Assembly (NCBI GenBank): GCA_031551355.1
Contig: JAVBNT010000038.1
Location: 4,126-68,125 of the forward strand
Origin: Candidatus Xenobia bacterium
GTDB lineage: Bacteria; Vulcanimicrobiota; CADAWZ01
DNA length: 64,000 nt
Direction of reading: 5' to 3'
Every line of letters begins with the position of its first letter. Positions within the stretch are counted from its first letter, which is position 1. Shown here one piece after another: positions 3,700 through 53,437 of this stretch. The notes beneath the pieces are model-generated. The model had not been told where the DNA came from. It made no database searches and was given only the letters and a program-made list of their open reading frames with translations. The translations under genes were made by a program, and so were the position numbers.

Positions 3700-4653
3700 A
3701 TGATATTGGCTGAACATCTTACGAAATATTATGGAGATATATGTGCTATTGAGGATATAAGTTTTGAAGTCGGACAGGGGGAAATTGTCGGACTTCTTGG
3801 TCCCAATGCTGCCGGAAAGACGACAACCATGCGTATTCTGACGGGATTTTTCCCGCCGACATCCGGTAAAGCTGTAATTGCCGGTGAGGATGTTATGGGC
3901 GATTCGGTATCCCTTAGGAAGCAGATAGGGTATTTGCCGGAAAATGTCCCTCTTTATATGGATATGACGGTTGCGGATTTTTTAAATTTTGCTGCCGCTG
4001 CAAAATGTGTTCCGTCTTCTTTGCGCAAAAAGCGGGTTGAAGAAGTAATGGATAAATGTGTTTTGGCACATGAAGCCGATAGCATGATCGGTAAGCTGTC
4101 GAAAGGATACAAGCAGAGAGTCGGCATTGCCCAGGCGATAATCAATGAACCTAAAGTTTTGATTCTGGATGAGCCGACTGTTGGTCTGGACCCCAATCAG
4201 GTTGTGGAGATCAGGGATATAATAAAAAGCCTTGCCGGAAATTCCACCGTTATTTTCTCTTCCCACATATTGGAAGAAGTTGCCAAGACATGTAATAAAG
4301 TTATCATTATAAATAAGGGAAAAGTGCTGGCGATTGATTCTCCCGATAATTTGTCGTCGGAAATGGAGGGCTCTGATCGGCTGGTTTTGGAACTTTCCGG
4401 AGATCCTGATAAGATATCCGATTTGATAAAATTGCATCCCGGCGTTAACTCTTTGGAGCTTTCTCCGGATTCCCCCAAAGATGCCCTGACCTTTGAACTT
4501 ACCGTTTATGCGGATAAAAATCCCGAGCTGCGCAGGGAACTTGTAAGAAAAATTGTCGAAACAGGATTTGGCCTTTATCAGCTGCGTCTTGAAAAACTGA
4601 CTCTTGAGCAGATATTTACGCGGATAATAAGACAGGGGGGTGTGAGAAATTGA
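3700..4653 (+). CDS. ABC transporter ATP-binding protein (GldA-like, ABC-2 type)
   Basis: Walker A 'GPNAAGKTT', signature 'LSKGYKQRV', Walker B 'LILDEPTVGLD'. The start is moved to ATG 3700, which follows a G-rich RBS. The ORF track begins at TTG 3676. Confidence 0.85.
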   Translation: MILAEHLTKYYGDICAIEDISFEVGQGEIVGLLGPNAAGKTTTMRILTGFFPPTSGKAVIAGEDVMGDSVSLRKQIGYLPENVPLYMDMTVADFLNFAAAAKCVPSSLRKKRVEEVMDKCVLAHEADSMIGKLSKGYKQRVGIAQAIINEPKVLILDEPTVGLDPNQVVEIRDIIKSLAGNSTVIFSSHILEEVAKTCNKVIIINKGKVLAIDSPDNLSSEMEGSDRLVLELSGDPDKISDLIKLHPGVNSLELSPDSPKDALTFELTVYADKNPELRRELVRKIVETGFGLYQLRLEKLTLEQIFTRIIRQGGVRN

Positions 4654-9622: not shown

Positions 9623-9814
9623 ATGGCAAACCCGAAATATAAAACTTCGCATTCTAAAACAAGACGCAGAAGAGCAAACATAAGGCTTGAATCTCCTGCT
9701 CTCTCAACCTGCCAGAACTGCAAGGAGCCTAAGCTTCTTCACCATGTTTGCGGCGTTTGCGGTTTTTATAAGGGAAAAGAAGTTCTTAAACGCGAAGAAG
9801 TTCAGGAAGGTTAG
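9623..9814 (+). CDS. rpmF: 50S ribosomal protein L32
   Basis: 'MANPKYKTSHSKTRRRRAN' plus a CxxC...CxxC zinc ribbon. Confidence 0.9.
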   Translation: MANPKYKTSHSKTRRRRANIRLESPALSTCQNCKEPKLLHHVCGVCGFYKGKEVLKREEVQEG

Positions 9815-9922
9815 TCTAGTTTTTTGCGTTGGTATTTTTAAATTCTATGTCAGCTTCTGCTGTTCATAGGATTTATTTTTATAGTTTTTAATGTCTTTAT
9901 TTTTTGACTTGGTGGGTGTTTT

Positions 9923-10918
9923 ATGTTTAACGGTAGATCTGTTTCAGTCGCTTCCATAGGAGCGTATGCCCCTGAAAAGCGCCTTACTAATTTTGATTTG
10001 GAAAAAATTGTCAACACTTCCGATGAGTGGATTACGTCACGCTCCGGTATAAAAGAGAGAAGAGTGGCTGAGCCCGACTGTGCCTCCTCTGATTTGATGG
10101 CGAAGGCCGCCCGGGTTGCTTTGGAGCGTTCGGGAGTAGAATCGTCTTCAATACAGATGGTAATAGCATGTACTGCAACGCCTGATATGTTGTTTCCGCC
10201 TACTGCGTGTCTTGTTCAGCAAAAATTAGGATTGCCGGAAGCTGTCTGCTTCGATCTCGAAGCGGGATGCTCCGGTTTTTTATATGGCGTTTCAGTCGCC
10301 AGCCAGTTCGTTGCCACAGGTTCTATGAATAATATTCTCGTCGTTGGCGGCGATGTGCTTACCAGAATAGTGAATTGGGAGGACAGGAACACCTGTGTTC
10401 TTTTTGGTGACGGTGCCGGTGCGGCAGTAATAACTCCCGGTAAAGGTGAATCCGGAATTATGGGGTTTAATCTTAATGCCGACGGAAATCTGTGGCGTAC
10501 CCTGTTTATGCCTGCCGGAGGATCTAAAATTCCGGCCTCTGAAGAATCTGTTAAGAATAAGCTGCATACGGTTAGCATGGAGGGGAAGGAAGTTTTTAGG
10601 CATGCCGTTACAAAAATGTCTGAATCCGCATCTGCGTTAATGTCCCGTTTGGGTATTACCGTTGATGATATTTCACACTATATTCCGCATCAGGCTAATG
10701 TTAGAATTATTGAGTCTGTAGCCAAGAGACTGGGAGTTCCGGAGGAAAAAGTAGTTCTGAATTTAGACCGTTACGGAAATACATCATGCGGATCGATTCC
10801 TCTTGCCTGGAATGAGGCTTTTGAGACCGGGCGGCTGAAAAAAGGAGATATTTTACTGTTTACGGCTGCCGGTGCCGGTCTTACATGGGGATCGATGATT
10901 TTGAGATGGGGCGTTTAG
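9923..10918 (+). CDS. fabH: 3-oxoacyl-ACP synthase III
   Basis: Active-site Cys in 'EAGCSGFLYG', and the His/Asn region 'IPHQANVRI...GNTSCGSIP'. Confidence 0.9.
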   Translation: MFNGRSVSVASIGAYAPEKRLTNFDLEKIVNTSDEWITSRSGIKERRVAEPDCASSDLMAKAARVALERSGVESSSIQMVIACTATPDMLFPPTACLVQQKLGLPEAVCFDLEAGCSGFLYGVSVASQFVATGSMNNILVVGGDVLTRIVNWEDRNTCVLFGDGAGAAVITPGKGESGIMGFNLNADGNLWRTLFMPAGGSKIPASEESVKNKLHTVSMEGKEVFRHAVTKMSESASALMSRLGITVDDISHYIPHQANVRIIESVAKRLGVPEEKVVLNLDRYGNTSCGSIPLAWNEAFETGRLKKGDILLFTAAGAGLTWGSMILRWGV

Positions 10919-10928
10919 GAGGAGTTTT

Positions 10929-11894
10929 ATGAGTATAAAGGAATTAGCTATTGTTTTTCCGGGCCAGGGTGCTCAAAAAGTTGGTATGGGGCGTGATTTT
11001 TTTGATAACAGCCCTTCGGTTTCGGATTTGTTTAATAAAGCTGATGAAATCTTAGGTTATTCTATTTCCGATATTTGCTTTAACGGACCGGATGAGGAGC
11101 TTACAAAGACTTTGAATACTCAGCCGGCTATTTTCGTTATGTCCATTGCGGCGCTGACGCTGCTTCGTGAAAAAGGATTTGAGCCTTCGATGACTGCGGG
11201 GCATAGTGTCGGCGAATATGCTGCTCTTGTTGCCGCCGGTGTTTTGTCTTTTGAAGACGGCCTTAGGTTGGTTGCCAAAAGAGGCCGGCTGATGCAGGAA
11301 GCCGGAACAACGGCTCCGGGTACTATGGCTGCGGTAATCGGACTTGACTATGAGACAATAAAAAAATGTTGTATGGATTCATATTCTGCCGGGATAGTGG
11401 AAATTGCTAATTTTAATACACCTGAGCAGATTGTTATTTCCGGGGAAACAGCCGCTGTGGAGAGAGCTGCGGAATTGATTAAGGCTAAAGGAGCCAAAAG
11501 GGTTATGCCTTTGAATGTCGGTGCCGCCTTCCATTCCAGACTTATGAAAACAGCGGCAGAATCTTTAGCAACTCATCTTGATGGTGTTGATTTCAAGCAT
11601 CCGTCGATGCCGGTTGTGGTTAATGCCACGGCTGAGATGCTGACCGATGCTTCAAAAATAAAGGAAACGCTGAAAACCCAGATGCTCGGAAGTGTTATGT
11701 GGGTTGATTCGATTAGGGCGATGGCTGCGGACGGTATTGATACTTTTGTTGAAGCTGGTCCGGGCAGAGCTTTGTGTGGTATGATAAAAAAGATAGATCT
11801 GAGTCTTACTACTTTAAATATAGAAGATATGGCAACTCTTGAGAAAACAACAGAATCTTTGAATTCACAGTTTGCTTTGCTTCAGAGTGCCTAG
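10929..11894 (+). CDS. fabD: Malonyl-CoA:ACP transacylase
   Basis: 'FPGQGAQKVGMG' and 'GHSVGEYAALV' with the active-site Ser. Confidence 0.9.
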   Translation: MSIKELAIVFPGQGAQKVGMGRDFFDNSPSVSDLFNKADEILGYSISDICFNGPDEELTKTLNTQPAIFVMSIAALTLLREKGFEPSMTAGHSVGEYAALVAAGVLSFEDGLRLVAKRGRLMQEAGTTAPGTMAAVIGLDYETIKKCCMDSYSAGIVEIANFNTPEQIVISGETAAVERAAELIKAKGAKRVMPLNVGAAFHSRLMKTAAESLATHLDGVDFKHPSMPVVVNATAEMLTDASKIKETLKTQMLGSVMWVDSIRAMAADGIDTFVEAGPGRALCGMIKKIDLSLTTLNIEDMATLEKTTESLNSQFALLQSA

Positions 11895-25551: not shown

Positions 25552-26580
25552 ATGACTTTTCCGTTTAAACCCAAGATAGTAGGGTGGGAGCTTACAAGAC
25601 GGTGCAATTACCGGTGTCTTCACTGCGGTACAAGCTGCGGTGCGCCCAGAGATGATGAACTGACGCTTGATCAGGCCTATAAAATGATTGACGATCTTGC
25701 CGAACTTGGATGTGAAATACTCAATCTGTCCGGAGGAGAGCCGTTGATGCACCCTCATTGGGATAAGTTTGCCGTCAGATTGAAGGAAAACAATATTACT
25801 CCGTATATGATTACCAATGCTTACTATATTGAAGACAGTATTGAGCGCATATTAAATTCGCCTTTGAGGCGTATAGGAATAAGCATTGACGGTGATGAAA
25901 AGCTTCATAATCATATAAGGCAAAATCCTGAGGCTTATGCGCGTGTTCTCTCCGCAGCTAAACTTTTGAAAAAACATGGTGTTTCTGTCGGAGCCGTTTC
26001 TCATGCCGCCAAATATAATTTGCATTTGCTTGAGCACATGTATCAGGAATTTTTGAAAATACCGCTTGATTTCTGGCAGATTCAGCTGGCATTTTCCTCC
26101 GGCCGTATGAAGGATTATTCAAATGAACTTTTGGAACCGGAACAGCTTGTAGAAGTGGCAAAATTTATTGAGGAAAAACGCAAAGAAAAGAAAATGATGG
26201 TATGTGTCGGTGACAATCTCGGATATTACTCGTCATATGATATCGTTGATTCGCCCTGGAAGGGCTGCCATGCGGGCCGCTGGGTAGCAGGAATAGAAGC
26301 CGACGGCACGGTTAAAGGATGTCTTTCACTTACTCCTGAGTTTAGAGAGGCTAATCTAAAAGAGCGTTCTTTTAAGGATATCTGGCAGGACAGAGAACTG
26401 TTCAAGTATAACCGCTATTTCAATCCGGAAGATATGTCCGGCAACTGTAAAGGATGTGATAAGGCCCTTGACTGCCGCGGTGGCTGCAGGGTAACTTCTT
26501 TCTGCATGACGGGAAATGTTTTTGACAATCCTTACTGTCTTTACAGGGTTGAGAAGGAAGCTAAGTCCGGTGCAAAATAG
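25552..26580 (+). CDS. Radical SAM enzyme with a C-terminal SPASM domain
   Basis: 'CNYRCLHC' is the CxxxCxxC motif, and 'LSGGEPL' fits. The SPASM cysteines are 'WKGCHAGRW...GCLSL' and 'CKGCDKALDCRGGCRVTSFC'. Confidence 0.85.
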   Translation: MTFPFKPKIVGWELTRRCNYRCLHCGTSCGAPRDDELTLDQAYKMIDDLAELGCEILNLSGGEPLMHPHWDKFAVRLKENNITPYMITNAYYIEDSIERILNSPLRRIGISIDGDEKLHNHIRQNPEAYARVLSAAKLLKKHGVSVGAVSHAAKYNLHLLEHMYQEFLKIPLDFWQIQLAFSSGRMKDYSNELLEPEQLVEVAKFIEEKRKEKKMMVCVGDNLGYYSSYDIVDSPWKGCHAGRWVAGIEADGTVKGCLSLTPEFREANLKERSFKDIWQDRELFKYNRYFNPEDMSGNCKGCDKALDCRGGCRVTSFCMTGNVFDNPYCLYRVEKEAKSGAK

Positions 26581-27847
26581 ATTTGTACTGCCAAAAATAG
26601 AGAACGGTGCATTTTCTCCTTTTGCCGGTGTTGTTTTTTATCCTATTCTTTTGAATTCTTTTTCACTTACAGTGACTGTCAGAGATGGTGTTGCCTGGGA
26701 GGATGATTCCGGTTTTGGATGGGCGCATTTTCTGGAACATGCAAATTTTCAAAAGACGGATCGTTATGCCTCTTTCCTTGAAATTGCCTCATTAGCGGAG
26801 TCGCTTGGCGCCAGGATCAGTGCTTTTACAACCAGAGACTGCGTTACCTATTCCATTCATGCTCCTTCCTGGTCTCTTGAAGAATCGTTTCGGATTATGA
26901 CTTCGCTGATTTCCCATTTAAACTTTGAGGATGATATACTTGACTCTGAAAAAGAAATTATTTTTCAGGAAATGGAGAGAGAAAAGGCTAACTTTAGATC
27001 TTACTATGTTCTGTTTTCGGAAAGTGAACTGCTGTCTCCGTCGATGCTCGGTCGCTATAGTCTTGGTTCAAGAGAAAGTCTTCTGTCTATAAACTCTGCC
27101 AATATCGCAGATTATAAACGCAGAGTTTACAGCCGTGAAAATATCTGCTTGACTCTTTGCGGCGGTTTTGATCTGGAGACGGCTCAGAACCTTACCGGTA
27201 TATTTCTGGAATCGCTTCCGTCTGCTAAAGTGCGCTTGCTGCAGGACTATAATCCTGCAAAGATCTCGGAACGCAGACGATTATACCACTGTCCGTCGGC
27301 GGCGAATCAGGTGCAGATGATCACTTATTTCCGCTTCCCGGCAGTTGCTTATTATGACTGGCTTAAAGCTTCACTTGTAAATACACTTTTGGGCGTAGGT
27401 TTTTCGTCTTTGTTTTATAAAAAATTGCGCCATGAGCAAAAACTTACATATACTACCGCAACTCAGTTGAAATTATACCCTGTGGCCGGAACTTTCCGTC
27501 TTGTGCTTGACTTGGACCCCAAATCAGCATCTTTTGCCGAGAACCTGATCTACAATGTGATCGCGGAACTTGACGATATTTCTGAGAATGATTTTGTTTT
27601 GGCCAAAAATAAATTTTGGGGCGATATCGCATTTAAGCTCTCAGATATGAACTCTTACGGACTTTTTGCCGCCAGAAGACAGTTTATGGGAGAGGAGCGG
27701 CTTCTTTTGTCAAACCTTTATGAGGAATTGAAAAACATGAGCAGGGAAGAACTCTCGGCGTTTGCCGTAAAGAATTTCATCAGAGATAATTCTATCGTTT
27801 GCTTTGCCGGCAGTGATGAGGCTTTAAATACCGTTTCAAAACAGTAG
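26570..27847 (+). CDS. M16 (pitrilysin/insulinase) family zinc peptidase
   Basis: The inverted zinc motif HxxEH ('WAHFLEHANFQ') sits near the N-terminus. GTG 26570 after GAGAAGGAAG overlaps the rSAM stop. The ORF track start at 26516 would overlap by 65 nt. Confidence 0.75.
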   Translation: MQNRFVLPKIENGAFSPFAGVVFYPILLNSFSLTVTVRDGVAWEDDSGFGWAHFLEHANFQKTDRYASFLEIASLAESLGARISAFTTRDCVTYSIHAPSWSLEESFRIMTSLISHLNFEDDILDSEKEIIFQEMEREKANFRSYYVLFSESELLSPSMLGRYSLGSRESLLSINSANIADYKRRVYSRENICLTLCGGFDLETAQNLTGIFLESLPSAKVRLLQDYNPAKISERRRLYHCPSAANQVQMITYFRFPAVAYYDWLKASLVNTLLGVGFSSLFYKKLRHEQKLTYTTATQLKLYPVAGTFRLVLDLDPKSASFAENLIYNVIAELDDISENDFVLAKNKFWGDIAFKLSDMNSYGLFAARRQFMGEERLLLSNLYEELKNMSREELSAFAVKNFIRDNSIVCFAGSDEALNTVSKQ

Positions 27848-49361: not shown

Positions 49362-49375
49362 ATCTTGGCCTCCCG

Positions 49376-51190
49376 TTATTGCTGCTGCTGCTGCGCTTCG
49401 TTTTCCTGCGCGCCCTGATTTTGTAATATGGCAAGTACGCCTTCAGCCATTACTGCCGTTAAATTGTCTTTCGCCATCTCAATTTGTTCAGAGATGAATT
49501 TGTCCTTGTTTTCTTTGCCCTTTATGTCTTTAAGCGGCTTTTTCAGCTCATTATAGACGGCACTGCTGATATTTTTTCTGAGTGCGTCAATTTCTTTCTG
49601 TTTTGTATTTAATTCTGCCAGACTCTGCGTCGACAAATCCTGATAAAACGCCGCTTTTTGTTCGTCAGTCATGCCCGCAAGCTGCGGTTCGATTTGTCTG
49701 AAAGCGTTGGCACACATGAAGTTGTTAATATCTTCTGTAGATGGGCCAAGTTGCTGCATTTTCTGGTCAAGATTTTTTGACTGGGTAATATCTTTGGCTA
49801 TTTTGGCAAACTTTACTCCACCGGCAACGGCGGAAACTACCAATGTCGCCGCTGCTCCTATCGGACCGAGAAGAGCTCCGCCGGCAACGGCCAACGGAAT
49901 GGCTCCGAGTGCTCCCGTAAGAGCTCCGACTGTCGTTAAGCCTTTTTCAACGCCAAGTTTATCAAGAACAAAGTCACTTACTTTGCCGGTTAACGGTTTT
50001 ATAAATTTTTGCACATCTGCGGTTAAGTTACGTATCGCCTGCTGGATTTTTGGCCCGGCTAACGCTCCTGCCACTGATGCCCCTGCTCCGATGACTGCTC
50101 CGGTAGCGATGCCTGCCGGTCCGGCAAATGAACCGGACACGGCTCCCAGGGCTGCGCCGGTAGCGGCAGATAAAGCTATTTTTTTAGCTTTGGATTCCAT
50201 ACGGGCACCGACTGCTCCGCCTATTGAAGCGGAAAGGTTTACCGCCGGTCCGCCGATTCCCGTAAAGGCTGTCGTTAGCATACCTGCCGTGAAGCCCCCG
50301 AAAGATCCGTCTCTTGTTTCTGCACGGCTGCTTCCTGATATTGTTGCCGTTGCTCCCGTCAGTCCGCCCATTAGAGCTGTCGAACCAAGTGCCAATCCTG
50401 CCGCGGCCGGGTTGGCAGATGTTGCTATCGCGGCAACGGCTCCGGCAACGGCTCCGCCTCCGGCGGCAAGCGTTGCTGTCAGTAACGACATTTTTGCCGT
50501 TTCTTTTGTTGTCGCGTTTTCAGAAAGTTTATCAGCGAAAGAAGAACCGGTCATGCCCCCGATTGCGCCGACTACTGCGCCTGCGATTGCCGTCACCGGA
50601 CCGCCGATTGCGCCCATGGCCGCACCTGTAGCGGCTCCTGCCGCTATCGGGGCCATTTTTTTGATAATGGATTTTGTTTTTGACAGTTCAACCGGTTTTC
50701 CCGATTCGTCTGTTTTTTGAATTTTTGAGTTCTGCAGTTTTTCTATCAGGGTTCCGGTTGCGCCGGCAACGGCTCCTGCTGCCGCCATTATTCCGATGGA
50801 AGCGAGTCCGGCTGCTCCTCCGGCGAGAGATGACGTGATTGCCGTGCTTGTAAGCAAGGCACCTGCTCCGACGGTAGAACCTGCAAGCAGCGCTTTGGTC
50901 ATGGAGCCTGTTTCTTCTCCAACCGAGACTCCGGCAAATCCAGCTCCGGCACCGGCTACTGCTCCGGGAATTCCTAAAGAGAAAAAGCCTTTTAGCGCCC
51001 CGCCCGTAGCAGCTGATTTTGGTGACGAGTAGGGCATATCGCCTGTTGTCTCAGGCCTGGGTTCAAAGTAATCGGCAATTTTCTGCAACGCGGAAGAAGA
51101 TTCTTTTGTCTCCACATTAACAACAGCCGCTTCCGGTTTAACCGAAGGTTGCTGCAGGGGTATATTGTTTGCATTACTTACAGAATTCAT
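49376..51190 (-). CDS. Paralog-family member P4: 604-aa Gly/Ala-rich multi-glycine-zipper protein with a C-terminal coiled-coil region
   Basis: Shares the N-terminus 'MNSVSNANNI'. More than 300 aa of GxxxG/AxxxA-type hydrophobic repeats. The C-terminus 'KQKEIDALRKN...QQQQQ'. The large plus-strand ORF at 49671..50720 is its mirror image. Confidence 0.6.
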   Translation of the reverse strand: MNSVSNANNIPLQQPSVKPEAAVVNVETKESSSALQKIADYFEPRPETTGDMPYSSPKSAATGGALKGFFSLGIPGAVAGAGAGFAGVSVGEETGSMTKALLAGSTVGAGALLTSTAITSSLAGGAAGLASIGIMAAAGAVAGATGTLIEKLQNSKIQKTDESGKPVELSKTKSIIKKMAPIAAGAATGAAMGAIGGPVTAIAGAVVGAIGGMTGSSFADKLSENATTKETAKMSLLTATLAAGGGAVAGAVAAIATSANPAAAGLALGSTALMGGLTGATATISGSSRAETRDGSFGGFTAGMLTTAFTGIGGPAVNLSASIGGAVGARMESKAKKIALSAATGAALGAVSGSFAGPAGIATGAVIGAGASVAGALAGPKIQQAIRNLTADVQKFIKPLTGKVSDFVLDKLGVEKGLTTVGALTGALGAIPLAVAGGALLGPIGAAATLVVSAVAGGVKFAKIAKDITQSKNLDQKMQQLGPSTEDINNFMCANAFRQIEPQLAGMTDEQKAAFYQDLSTQSLAELNTKQKEIDALRKNISSAVYNELKKPLKDIKGKENKDKFISEQIEMAKDNLTAVMAEGVLAILQNQGAQENEAQQQQQ

Positions 51191-51349
51191 AAATGATATA
51201 ACCTTTTATGCCACAGTACATTTTAATACTTATTGATATTATAACAAAGATCCTGATCGGTAGCCATTTTCTTTGTGTTAAATAATTATGAACACTTCAC
51301 TATCTTTAATTGTAAATCGGCTATTTGACGACATAATTTGTTAAGAATA

Positions 51350-51380
51350 TAAAAAACTGCCTTTTGATGGCAGTTTTTTA
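51350..51380. terminator. Hairpin flanked by A and T runs on both strands. It terminates P3 (minus strand) and may be bidirectional.
   Basis: 'AAAAAACTGCC-TTTTGAT-GGCAGTTTTTTA'. Confidence 0.5.
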
Positions 51381-51403: not shown

Positions 51404-52234
51404 TCAGCTGGTTGCTTTGGCAATTGCCGCCCCGGCAATACCGCCCGCCAAAGCGCCGATGCCTGCTCCGGCAAGAACACCGAGAGCTGTGTTGAGTGTG
51501 ATATTTACACCGGTTTCAAACCTTACTTTAGGAGTTTGAAATTCTCCCACTTTAATTCTCTCTATGTCCGGATAAAAGTCATGATCGTAACCTACAACTC
51601 TTTCATGGGTAGAATAAACGTCATTTCCGTCTTCATCCTTGCCTTCGTATACCTGATATGTCTCAATATCCTCACGTATGGACTCGCTGTATCCGTTCAG
51701 TTTTTTCTGCTCAATGTTATTTGTATTCCAGCTGACTTCCGGTGTTCCGTAGTTGGCATATTCCTTGGAGACATTCTGCATCACCGGTTTGCCGTTCTGC
51801 ATTACCGGGTTGTCTCTGGTTACATCCGTTGTACCATGACCGTAGCTTATCCAGTTGGAATATCTTGACGAGCTGTAGAAATCCGAGGGAATTTCTCCGA
51901 GAACTTCTTTTTGCATGACCGGTTCCTGCCAGTCAAGCGTTATTGTGTTAAAGTCGTTTGTGGCCTTAATGGTGTTCATCGACATATTATAAGCTACGAT
52001 GCCGCCGGCAATACCTCCGGCTACTCCGCCGATGGCAGCGCCTTTTATCGCCCAGTCTTTTGCTTTTTCATCAAGTTTGAGAAAGTCGGGTTTTTTAAAG
52101 TCTTTGGCAGGTGAACTTTTCTCAAATGCATCGGCTGTTTCGGCAGACAATTCTGACGATGTTGCTTTGATATTTTGTGCCTGAGTGTTTTTTAATATTG
52201 CACTGGCTGTGATATTTGAAGAGATACCGTTCAT
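51404..52234 (-). CDS. Paralog-family member P3
   Basis: 'MNGISSNITASAILKN', first zipper 'GAAIGGVAGGIAGGIVAYNMS', central 'WQEPVMQ...NPVMQNGKPVMQNVS...YGTPEVSW', C-terminal zipper 'LGVLAGAGIGALAGGIAGAAIAKA'. RBS GGAGGT sits 36 nt after the P2 stop. Confidence 0.6.
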   Translation of the reverse strand: MNGISSNITASAILKNTQAQNIKATSSELSAETADAFEKSSPAKDFKKPDFLKLDEKAKDWAIKGAAIGGVAGGIAGGIVAYNMSMNTIKATNDFNTITLDWQEPVMQKEVLGEIPSDFYSSSRYSNWISYGHGTTDVTRDNPVMQNGKPVMQNVSKEYANYGTPEVSWNTNNIEQKKLNGYSESIREDIETYQVYEGKDEDGNDVYSTHERVVGYDHDFYPDIERIKVGEFQTPKVRFETGVNITLNTALGVLAGAGIGALAGGIAGAAIAKATS

Positions 52235-52270
52235 GAGTGCTGACCTCCGTTTTCTATTTGAGCGGTTATT

Positions 52271-53074
52271 TTAATTGTTTATGGCTTTTGCTATTGCCGC
52301 TCCGGCAATGCCGCCGGCCAAAGCGCCGATTCCTGCTCCGGCCAAAACTCCGAGAGCAGTATTGAGCGTTACGTTTACAGCCGGTTTGAAACTGACGTTG
52401 GGAACCTGATAGCTTCCTATTTTAGTCGATTCTATATTGGGCTGGAATTTGTGTTCAAATCCCTTTATTCTTTCATAAGTGCTGCCGTTTTTTTGATACT
52501 GCTCGACATCGGGACTTGTTGAGTGGCTGTATCCGCTCAGTTTTTCCTGGGAAATATCTTTTGTTTCCCATTTTACTACCGGCGTTCCATAGTCGGAATA
52601 TGTGGCAGAGATATTTTTCATCAAAGGAGCACCGTTTTCCTGGACGGGATTATTTCCGTAAATATCTGTTGTTCCCGCGCCTGATTTTGCCCAGTCGGCT
52701 TTGCTGGAGGAATTGTAGAAATCTGCCGGTATATTGCCTAATTTTTCATTTTGCATCTCCGGTTGCTGCCAGTCTACGCTGACGGTGTTGAATTCATTTT
52801 TTTCCTTAAGTGCTGCAGATGACAGGTTATGGGCGACAATGCCGCCGGCAATACCGCCGGCGACTCCGCCGATGGAAGCCCCTATTGCGGCACCTTTTTT
52901 TGTGCTTTCGCTCATTTTAAGAAAGTCCGACTTTTTTAACTCTGAAGAGTCGGAGGCTTTTTCTACGGTATCTTTTGTATTTATAGCCGCACAGTCGTTT
53001 TTTTCTGCTGTTTTTTTCGTTTCGGCACTTTTTAATATTGAGCTTGCGGTAATTCCTGAAGATATGCTATTCAT
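52271..53074 (-). CDS. Paralog-family member P2
   Basis: 'MNSISSGITASSILKS'. Same two-zipper architecture. The 5' 45 nt are nearly identical to P1 at the DNA level. Confidence 0.6.
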   Translation of the reverse strand: MNSISSGITASSILKSAETKKTAEKNDCAAINTKDTVEKASDSSELKKSDFLKMSESTKKGAAIGASIGGVAGGIAGGIVAHNLSSAALKEKNEFNTVSVDWQQPEMQNEKLGNIPADFYNSSSKADWAKSGAGTTDIYGNNPVQENGAPLMKNISATYSDYGTPVVKWETKDISQEKLSGYSHSTSPDVEQYQKNGSTYERIKGFEHKFQPNIESTKIGSYQVPNVSFKPAVNVTLNTALGVLAGAGIGALAGGIAGAAIAKAINN

Positions 53075-53203
53075 TTTTAATCTCCTTGGTTTTAAGGCAA
53101 TAAACTACCATTTTAAATAATTTTTAATATATTATACCATACTGTTTTTTTACAGGTAAGTCTTTTTGGGTTAAAAAAGTATTAACAGATATACAAAAAG
53201 AGG

Positions 53204-53245
53204 CTGTCGCGCTAAATGGGTAGAAAGACCCGCTTAGCACGACAG
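53204..53245 (-). repeat. Hairpin repeat family A copy. Read on the minus strand it is followed by a U-run, so it is a likely terminator of P1.
   Basis: The minus-strand sequence is 'CTGTCGTGCTAAGCGGGTCTTTCTACCCATTTAGCGCGACAG' then 'CCTCTTTTTGTAT'. About 85% identical to 16641..16684. Confidence 0.5.
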
Positions 53246-53380
53246 AAAAAGATTGAAAATGCTTTGCTCCGTCATTTTTTGCTGTTATTTATCTTCATTT
53301 CTCATCCTTTCTAATGGTATTTGTCCGGCACATGCCGGGATTAGGCGCCTGCGGGCGCGAAGCTTTTATCATGTAAAAAG

Positions 53381-53404
53381 GGCCGCCGTTAGCACGACAG
53401 CCCT
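53381..53404 (-). repeat. Hairpin repeat family A' copy inside a larger 14-bp-stem palindrome
   Basis: The minus-strand sequence 'GGGCTGTCGTGCTAACGGCGGCCC' matches 16478..16501 except for one or two nt. It is flanked by 'CATGTAAAAAGGGC' and 'GCCCTCTTTACATG'. Confidence 0.4.
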
Positions 53405-53437
53405 CTTTACATGATAAATAATATGTGTCTGTTATTT

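Follow-up and report, generated by a model that had tools for sequence, protein, structure and literature searches.

A conserved glycine-zipper hairpin protein, P4, and its small beta-domain neighbours in Candidatus Xenobia

Introduction

A contig of a Candidatus Xenobia bacterium (JAVBNT010000038.1, assembly GCA_031551355.1) carries five co-directional genes, P1 to P5, all on the minus strand, within the 64,000-nucleotide stretch analysed here (positions 4,126 to 68,125 of the contig; hereafter the window). What kind of protein does the fourth of them encode? P4 is a chain of 604 residues rich in glycine (13.2%) and alanine (18.5%), and an earlier note on this DNA, made from the letters alone, took it for an unusual member of the array of smaller paralogs that surrounds it. 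Here we report that P4 is a genuine gene with a family of its own, that its central part is an array of Gly-zipper hairpins, and that it shares an operon arrangement with P5. We propose, at a probability of roughly 0.45, that P4 is a polytopic inner-membrane protein whose seven Gly-zipper hairpins pack with subunits of the P5 type, which are predicted to have two transmembrane helices (2-TM) and a beta domain. To our knowledge the Xenobia, a gut- and rumen-associated class, have no cultured member.

Results

P4 is a conserved gene

A search of 5.8 billion proteins returned 13 full-length relatives of P4 (553–698 residues, 29–59% identity), all of them unannotated, and the P4-like open reading frame (ORF) is intact at every homologous locus fetched. 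The family alignment has 39 invariant columns. Conserved motifs extend beyond the Gly/Ala stretches to DYFEPR, EETGS, SGSRxxxxRDGS, GPKxQQxIRNLTxDxQK and the C-terminal domain; DY[FT][EK]PRP, the zipper hairpins, SGSRxxxxRDG and GPKxQQxIRNLTxDxQK are aligned in P4 and 12 homologs and are also present in the short forms described below. One cluster at 90% identity holds 18 members of 592–603 residues. The ratio of nonsynonymous to synonymous substitution (dN/dS), estimated by the Nei-Gojobori method between close relatives and region by region, is 0.07–0.22 for the whole gene, 0.04–0.18 for the hairpin region and 0.05–0.08 for the C-terminal domain. The first ~60–85 residues, with 0.7–1.4 in the two closest pairs, appear to be under relaxed constraint. 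By these measures P4 is a real gene under strong purifying selection.

The plus strand of the hairpin region holds a long ORF (349 residues) and the local GC content is high (0.56 vs ~0.42 for the window), which might be read to mean that P4 is low-complexity junk or a mis-called frame and the plus-strand ORF the true gene. We regard this as next to impossible, and the conservation data already refute it. Homologs align along the entire minus-strand protein, with its non-repetitive N- and C-termini included; dN/dS lies far below 1; and P4 belongs to a unit with a Shine-Dalgarno sequence, a promoter-like site and terminators, with P5 close behind. The antisense ORFs of homologous loci range from 159 to 259 residues and their ends are not conserved, so that the plus-strand ORF is best taken, as the earlier note had proposed, for a shadow of P4. 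Judged by this lack of conservation it is not a gene and should not be annotated. G occupies 45% of the first codon positions on the P4 sense strand. An exact reverse-codon register of the shadow ORF was considered and is ruled out by TTA, CTA and TCA codons within it; the verdict rests on conservation.

The same note had correctly given the coordinates of the 604-residue ORF, the GGGAGG in the gap to P5, the poly-Gln end and the antisense ORF. No relative is frameshifted or pseudogenised, there are no signs of junk, and P4 has no strong homolog among known structural proteins. For annotation this means that P4 should stand as a genuine gene with its own family and that no antisense ORF should be called here.

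Architecture of P4

Every Lys, Arg, Asp and Glu between residues 57 and 466 lies in one of the short loops that separate seven uncharged stretches of 24–55 residues each. Over 13 sequences the charged fraction is 0.2–2.3% in six of the hairpins, 12.5% in the first (residues 57–94) and 33–46% in the loops, where K/R are at least equal in number to D/E (K+R vs D+E of 8/4, 3/3, 2/2, 4/1 and 7/4 in the inter-hairpin loops). AlphaFold2 (AF2), run on the family alignment, predicts an all-helical P4 in which 14 helices are paired as helix-turn-helix, one pair per stretch, with turns at Gly, Pro or Asn; the invariant residues P198, P261, P358 and P443 lie in these turns.

The zipper periodicity exceeds what composition would give. 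GxxxG occurs 29 times in residues 57–466, against 13.1±3.0 in 2000 shuffles (z≈5), and GxxxGxxxG 9 times against 2.3±1.6; the looser [GAS]xxx[GAS]xxx[GAS] is mildly enriched (60 against 45.5±6.1). Comparison of hairpin profiles with hhalign relates hairpin 2 to hairpin 5 (97% probability; 55% for the reversed control), 1 to 3 (73%) and 5 to 6 (67%), which shows a partial internal duplication with only some pairs detectably related. The region had been described in the earlier note as tandem GxxxG/AxxxA repeats, exemplified by IAAGAATGAAMGAIGGPVTAIAGAVVGAIGGMTGS (residues 182–216). The periodicity stands; the repeats are better described as seven helix-turn-helix hairpins, of which only some pairs are detectably related. 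In the DNA there are no tandem repeats other than the (CAG)5 Gln codons, which Tandem Repeats Finder reports as (TGC)5 on the plus strand.

In the polar segment that precedes the last hairpin, K381, Q384, N388 and D392 are invariant and R387 and K395 near-invariant; it is retained in short forms, and its pattern GPKxQQxIRNLTxDxQK was used to retrieve genomic homologs. E92 and D294, elsewhere in the chain, are invariant as well. Residues 1–35 have a predicted local distance difference test score (pLDDT) below 50. In the C-terminal domain AF2 places helices at 485–504, 509–529, 531–555, 559–572 and 574–603 (block-mean pLDDT ~69–84). The tail is rich in Lys, Glu and Gln, as had been noted before; its supposed coiled-coil-like character gives way to a predicted five-helix bundle with helices of 14–30 residues rather than one long coiled coil.

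An exhaustive HMMER search with the P4 family profile gave 408 matches at E<=1e-3 and 56 clusters at E<=1e-10. Many are short forms of 300–480 residues, which combine the N-terminal motif and hairpin 1 with a core from hairpin 4 to hairpin 7 that includes GPKxQQxxRN. On this comparison P4 is a long form with the extra hairpins 2 and 3 and an added C-terminal domain. Matches at E 1e-5 to 1e-8 that cover hairpin 3 alone come from small Gly-zipper proteins of a generic kind. Only a few members are named; these are from metagenome-assembled genomes (MAGs) of 'Candidatus Eremiobacteraeota bacterium' and 'Candidatus Xenobia bacterium', and a scan of genomes yielded four loci, of which one is titled Candidatus Xenobia bacterium, a ruminal MAG. 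The family is, as far as these searches reach, unnamed and confined to uncultured Xenobia/Eremiobacterota, and no description of it was found in the literature on these lineages or on multi-hairpin glycine-zipper proteins. NCBI labels one short-form relative 'Tim17/Tim22/Tim23/Pmp24 domain-containing', but Tim17 labels of this kind are not borne out by Pfam scores.

Membrane character of P4

On the Hessa scale, P4 has 12 segments with a summed free energy (dG) below 4 kcal/mol, three soluble proteins of the window have none (minima 5.1–8.5), and a transporter of the major facilitator superfamily (MFS) from the window, used as a control, has 16 (minimum -0.3). The hydrophobicity of P4 is thus intermediate between that of the MFS control and that of the soluble controls, and the zipper helices of P1 and P5 resemble P4 in this respect. 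No signal peptide, lipobox or double-glycine leader was found in P4. The only cultured member of the host phylum is diderm (PMC9758169). In the absence of a signal peptide, P4 is likely to reside in the inner membrane, and we infer an Nin-Cin topology in which the charged loops and both soluble ends would be cytoplasmic and the hairpin tips would point outward.

A soluble or peripheral Ala/Gly-rich helical protein of the phasin, apolipoprotein or tape-measure kind would agree with the marginal hydrophobicity of the single helices (0.14–0.67 kcal/mol per residue) and with the K/E/Q-rich tail, and tape-measure proteins do appear among the viral fold matches, at non-significant levels only (E>=0.3, probability <=0.15). 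We nonetheless consider such a protein very unlikely, as the near-chargeless stretches of 35–55 residues are kept across 13 sequences and have no counterpart in the soluble controls. Neither Pfam nor PHROGs gives a phasin or tape-measure match, and there are no phage genes nearby.

P4 and the small family are distinct

P1, P2 and P3 are 57–59% identical to one another and 34% identical to P5. These four are true paralogs, with an invariant WQEPV...NPV...YGxP...GYxHxFxP between two Gly-zipper helices; W105, P108, G221, H224 and P228 are the invariant residues of the central beta domain. P5 is a predicted 2-TM protein with Gly-zipper helices at ~60–90 and ~252–288 around an all-beta domain (98–245), which AF2 models with two ~33-residue strands and a block-mean pLDDT of mostly at least 90 (range 50–94).

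The P5 model has no match in the Protein Data Bank (PDB) at E<=0.001 by Foldseek (TM-scores <=0.18). Its top non-significant fold matches are the 2-TM PAC/ASOR channel (E 0.05) and aerolysin-type toxins; the arrangement of a beta domain between two transmembrane helices recalls the architecture of PAC/ASOR, ASIC and P2X channels, although the match is not significant. P1–P3 and P5 reach only sub-threshold scores against the Pfam Gly-zipper models (17–23 bits vs cut-offs of 24–29), and P5 scores 13.6 bits against Tim17 (PF02466; cut-off 32.7). A PDB sequence profile search with both the P4 family and the small family gave only insignificant matches to NDUFA11, ClyA and prion zippers.

P4 itself has no detectable homology to these proteins beyond one generic zipper. 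The best BLASTP E values are 0.75 for P4 vs P5 and 0.11 for P4 vs P1, and alignment of the two family profiles by hhalign finds one 20-column Gly-zipper match at 41% probability. Small-family profiles miss P4 in hmmsearch; the P4 profile matches P5 only at E 3.6e-4 (13.8 bits). The beta-domain motifs WQEPV...GYxHxFxP are missing from P4, which is all-helical in AF2. Membership of P4 in the P1–P3/P5 family was therefore rejected, the homology being limited to a generic 20-column zipper and the beta domain lacking. The earlier view that P4 had kept the family N-terminus and replaced the variable domain does not hold, given BLASTP E values of at least 0.1 and a shared N-terminus that amounts to just M-N-S-[IV]-[SG]-[SN].

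All five genes begin with M-N-[SG]-[IV]-[SG]-[SN] (gene starts 54280, 53074, 52234, 51190 and 49361), the similarity between P4 and the P1–P3/P5 family extending over 5–7 residues only, and the looser MN[SGN][IVL] occurs in 1 of 91 other window ORFs of at least 100 residues. P4 orthologs elsewhere start MNSISSG, MNSINSN or MNNISSI with different codons (L005:10001, L006:10001, L010:7878; homologous loci are cited by such handles). Given the different codons, the shared MNS[IV]S start is better explained by a conserved peptide than by a recent gene conversion. That two otherwise unrelated families start with M-N-S-[IV]-S-S(-G) could reflect a common signal for targeting, assembly or processing.

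P4 and P5 form a putative transcription unit

P4 ends in ...NEAQQQQQ-TAA, and 14 nucleotides later comes the ATG of P5. The gap to P3 is longer (213 nucleotides) and AT-rich, and contains a terminator-like hairpin and a promoter-like site; features of the locus are collected in Table 1. Because of the Shine-Dalgarno sequence in the 14-nucleotide gap, the promoter-like site and the hairpins after P3 and P5, P4 and P5 look like a separate two-gene transcription unit, from which the P1–P3 genes would be set apart by the terminator-like hairpin after P3. The same features, together with a recurring small-family neighbour elsewhere, uphold the linkage of the two genes that had been claimed before. 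The translational coupling claimed with it is read from spacing only, and the orthologous pairs lie 37–42 nucleotides apart. Upstream, P1 and P2 are separated by 363 non-coding nucleotides (53075–53437), P2 and P3 by only 36.

Table 1. Features of the P1–P5 locus (window coordinates).
Feature	Position	Strand	Details and basis
P4 coding sequence	49376..51190	-	604 residues + stop; ORF list, 13 full-length homologs, intact in all homologous loci
P4 hydrophilic N-terminal region, residues 1–56	51023..51190	-	MNSVSN start, variable linker, near-invariant D40-Y-F-E-P-R45..T48..S56; alignment
P4 seven Gly/Ala-zipper helical hairpins, residues 57–466	49793..51022	-	Short K/R-rich loops between; charge pattern, AF2
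P4 most conserved polar segment G-P-K-x-Q-Q-x-I-R-N-L-T-x-D-x-Q-K and amphipathic loop, residues 380–416	49943..50053	-	Between hairpins 6 and 7
P4 C-terminal helical domain, residues 467–599	49394..49792	-	K/E/Q-rich; AF2; conserved in long forms only
P4 poly-Gln end QQQQQ, residues 600–604	49379..49393	-	Sequence; homolog ends variable, Q/E/A-rich
P4–P5 spacer, 14 nucleotides (cGGGAGGccaagat)	49362..49375	-	GGGAGG Shine-Dalgarno at 49369–49374; read directly
P5 coding sequence, operon partner of P4	48432..49361	-	309 residues; ORF list; orthologs 3' of P4 in L005 and L006
Terminator-like hairpin after P5	48404..48426	-	9-bp stem + T run; pattern scan
Promoter-like TTGTTA-16-TAAAAT	51220..51247	-	~30 nucleotides upstream of P4 start; consensus scan only, not evidence of function
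Terminator-like hairpin after P3, AAAAAACTGCC-atcaaaa-GGCAGTTTTTT	51351..51379	-	Read from sequence; absent from pattern-scan output
P1 (53438–54280), P2 (52271–53074), P3 (51404–52234)	51404..54280	-	P5 paralogs upstream of P4
Antisense shadow ORF	49671..50720	+	349 residues, Ala/Pro-rich; wholly within P4 hairpin region

Gene neighbourhoods of P4-like genes

Small-family neighbours were gathered by local hmmsearch of the fetched loci; word-indexed searches with P5 or the small-family alignment gave only 3–5 proteins, the word filter having apparently been saturated with Gly-rich candidates. A P5-type gene follows P4 at L005 (42-nucleotide gap) and at L006 (37-nucleotide gap), the latter with two further small paralogs upstream. 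At L002 and L014, where identity to P4 is only ~30%, the order is reversed: the small-family gene comes first and P4 begins after a gap of 19 nucleotides. Beside the short form at L019, a gene ~0.8 kb upstream encodes a 358-residue protein that is matched by the small-family profile at E 6e-14, in permuted order. At the rumen MAG locus L008, a P4-like paralog of 443 residues (9754–11085) lies 13 nucleotides downstream of P4 in place of a P5-type gene. As to the co-occurrence of P4 and P5 that the earlier note had raised, a small-family gene adjoins a P4-like gene in at least four divergent lineages, and none does so in the rumen clade, L017, L018 or L008. The link between P4-like and small-family genes is recurrent across deep divergence and not universal.

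Contexts otherwise vary by lineage, and no conserved neighbourhood was found in which anything recurs apart from the small-family gene and, loosely, genes of pilin or type II secretion system (T2SS) type. In rumen MAGs (L007:705-3458, L009:1750-7632, L010:1796-7785) there is a prepilin-like gene whose product has KGFTILE at its N-terminus and stays below the cut-off of Pfam N_methyl, and directly upstream of the P4-like gene are genes for large proteins that begin with a hydrophobic, pseudopilin-like segment and have no Pfam match. T2SSF genes lie ~5 kb from the P4-like gene at L005:4377-5435 and L006:2502-3560, two T2SSE ATPases stand beside a short form at L011:10126-12311, and an N_methyl pilin-like ORF occurs in the window ~11 kb from P4 (37428–38141). 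The recurrence of such type IV pilus/T2SS-type genes near P4-family genes could be coincidence.

A distinctly improbable, broader possibility is that P4-like and P5-like proteins form an undescribed Xenobia envelope machine. In the inner membrane, covalently linked hairpins would be set in a palisade or ring and hold oligomers of the 2-TM subunits in place. The ~33-residue beta-strands of these subunits would form a spike or conduit through the periplasm or cell wall, and the MNSISS start would serve as a common targeting or assembly signal, possibly tied to the type IV pilus/T2SS-like genes.

Several further arrangements were observed at these loci. L019:136-1395 encodes a 419-residue protein in which a Gly-zipper hairpin at the N-terminus is combined with a K/E/Q coiled coil of ~280 residues, and precedes the gene of the 358-residue protein (L019:1418-2494), in which the order of the small-family match is permuted or duplicated. 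Between these two genes and the P4-like gene lie a PIN gene (PF01850) and, immediately before it, a 61-residue ORF; the pair may be a toxin-antitoxin system. Upstream of the small-family/P4 pair at L002:6715-8802 and L014:297-2384 are a 60-residue ORF, a radical-SAM enzyme and a 171-residue protein, an arrangement like that for ribosomally synthesised and post-translationally modified peptides. In the window itself, far from P4, an M16 peptidase gene lies behind a radical SAM/SPASM gene (25552–27847).

Discussion

We propose that P4 begins with a hydrophilic cytoplasmic N-terminus containing DYFEPR, followed by seven Gly/Ala-zipper hairpins that would enter the membrane or span it. The cytoplasmic side would hold both termini, the K/R-rich loops, the GPKxQQxIRNLTxDxQK segment and the 140-residue C-terminal helical domain. 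Glycine zippers drive tight packing of transmembrane helices (PMC12744356), and the small-residue helix faces of P4 would permit very tight helix-helix contacts. P4 would pack on itself and on both Gly-zipper helices of the P5-type protein presumed to be co-transcribed with it; the beta-rich domain of the latter would project outside the membrane. The outcome would be a hetero-oligomeric envelope complex, with P1–P3 as possible alternative small subunits. A role of P4 as scaffold or oligomeric pore component, suggested in the earlier note, is plausible on such an architecture. The complex might act as an ion or solute channel, as an organiser of lipids or the envelope, or as a toxin.

We infer the membrane insertion and topology of P4, its physical interaction with P5 and its oligomerisation from these data, and several observations weigh against the proposal. 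The P4 helices are marginally hydrophobic, the best 19-residue window reaching +2.6 kcal/mol, compared with -0.3 in the MFS control. Confidence in the AF2 model is modest (mean pLDDT 65.5, predicted template modelling score 0.52, hairpin 7 below 50), and the model matches no solved fold: a Foldseek search of PDB and BFVD gave no match at E<=0.001 and TM-scores of 0.15 or below. No small-family gene adjoins the P4-like gene at L007, L009 and L010 (rumen clade), L017 or L018, so that the partnership is not obligatory in cis.

The Gly-zipper hairpins known so far occur singly, in small stress lipoproteins (SlyB/YfgH) and in toxins that depolarise membranes. If the proposal is right, a conserved chain of seven, whose gene shares an operon with that of a 2-TM beta-domain protein, would put the element to a new use and offer a first functional handle on the Xenobia cell envelope.

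Comparison with known systems

P4 has no match above curated thresholds in Pfam, NCBIfam, PHROGs or PADLOC, and the P4 family finds only weak matches among PDB sequence profiles (NDUFA11, E 0.025; ClyA, E 0.037). The earlier note had suggested a comparison with holins, bacteriocins and proteins of the tape-measure or phasin kind; Pfam, NCBIfam, PHROGs and Foldseek against PDB and BFVD revealed no similarity of P4 to any of them. Holins have ~60–150 residues and 1–4 transmembrane helices and are encoded beside an endolysin, whereas P4 has 604 residues and ~14 helices and no lysin at its locus. As to tape-measure proteins, the PHROGs search gives only a RecT-like match (E 0.39), the best BFVD match has E 0.3 with TM-scores of 0.14 or below, and the neighbouring genes are housekeeping genes.

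A weak PADLOC match links residues 398–581 of P4 to the C-terminal part only of LeoBC, a dynamin-like protein of the Eleos system (E 4.4e-5, 20.8 bits). In the family, LeoBC is matched by 4 of 13 members and LeoB by one more (best E 2.6e-6). Since no dynamin GTPase domain is detected in P4 by Pfam, P4 is not a LeoBC member, though its hairpin and helical tail may be remotely similar to that protein. Small eukaryotic proteins such as Tim17/Tim22/Tim23, NDUFA11, Romo1 and C19orf12 share with P4 the predicted Gly/Ala-rich transmembrane helices; the matches, however, lie below curated thresholds and cover only 1–2 helices, and sizes and architectures differ. C19orf12 is matched in one P4 relative at E 2e-5, below the cut-off, and P4 has no match to Tim17/Tim22/Tim23 (PF02466). 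With P1–P3 and P5, P4 has in common the locus, the first 5–7 residues and Gly-zipper helices, but not the WQEPV...GYxHxFxP beta domain.

A functional parallel might be sought in the toxins of type VII and type VI secretion systems (T7SS, T6SS) that have Gly zippers as their active element, depolarise membranes and are neutralised by membrane immunity proteins (PMC12744356). P4 resembles the T7SS LXG toxins EsxX, TelE and TspA and the T6SS toxins Tse4 and Tse5 in its extended zipper helices and in the neighbouring gene for a small membrane protein. It could accordingly be imagined as a pore-forming toxin or bacteriocin, with P5, and P1–P3 as well, as membrane immunity proteins: the several paralogous copies recall immunity arrays, known toxins of this kind are indeed countered by membrane proteins (PMC12744356), and there are sub-threshold similarities of P4 to ClyA (PDB, E 0.037) and of P5 to XaxA (NCBIfam, E 1.3e-4, below cut-off). 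We find this quite unlikely. Unlike those toxins, P4 carries many hairpins rather than one zipper, and Pfam and NCBIfam detect no LXG, Rhs or PAAR domain, signal peptide or double-glycine leader in it. The hairpin array makes up ~68% of the chain, leaving nothing to shield it in a soluble state, and strong purifying selection over the whole length is not the pattern of a polymorphic toxin. The window around P1–P5 is ordinary chromosome (recA, RNase Y, fabH/fabD, RqcH, ClpP, PASTA kinases, serC, xanthine dehydrogenase) rather than a toxin/immunity island, none of the 30 window ORFs scanned besides P1–P5 is a T7SS or T6SS gene, and many P4 homologs have no adjoining candidate immunity gene.

The closest likeness is to the proteins of PF05433 (Rick_17kDa_Anti; SlyB, YfgH, OsmB, YiaD) and of PF13488/PF13441. 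Their 'glycine zipper 2TM' hairpins, in SlyB and YfgH, insert in membranes and oligomerise laterally into rings (bioRxiv 10.64898/2025.12.22.696046), and the P4 unit is likewise an uncharged helix-tight turn-helix of ~40 residues with GxxxG/AxxxA faces and G/P turns. P4 might therefore be a membrane-stabilising or lipid-nanodomain belt, its linked hairpins forming an arc or ring around lipids or proteins in envelope stress, independently of P5. The generic small Gly-zipper proteins that match hairpin 3 of the P4 profile, and the rumen-clade homologs that stand alone without a small-family partner, would suit such a belt, as would ring formation by SlyB through its 2TM element. We hold it to be unlikely. 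P4 matches none of PF05433, PF13488 and PF13441 at E<=1; it has neither a lipobox nor a signal peptide, so that it could not reach the outer membrane as SlyB does, and no SlyB-type periplasmic domain; and its conserved polar motifs, probably cytoplasmic, suggest a more specific function. Compared with SlyB/YfgH-type proteins, P4 has seven units per chain, lacks the lipoprotein signal and the periplasmic beta-sandwich domain, and carries the conserved, presumably cytoplasmic motifs and the 140-residue helical C-terminal domain. The nearest known element to P4 is the glycine-zipper 2TM hairpin of these lipoproteins, and P4 is a new family built from that known element.

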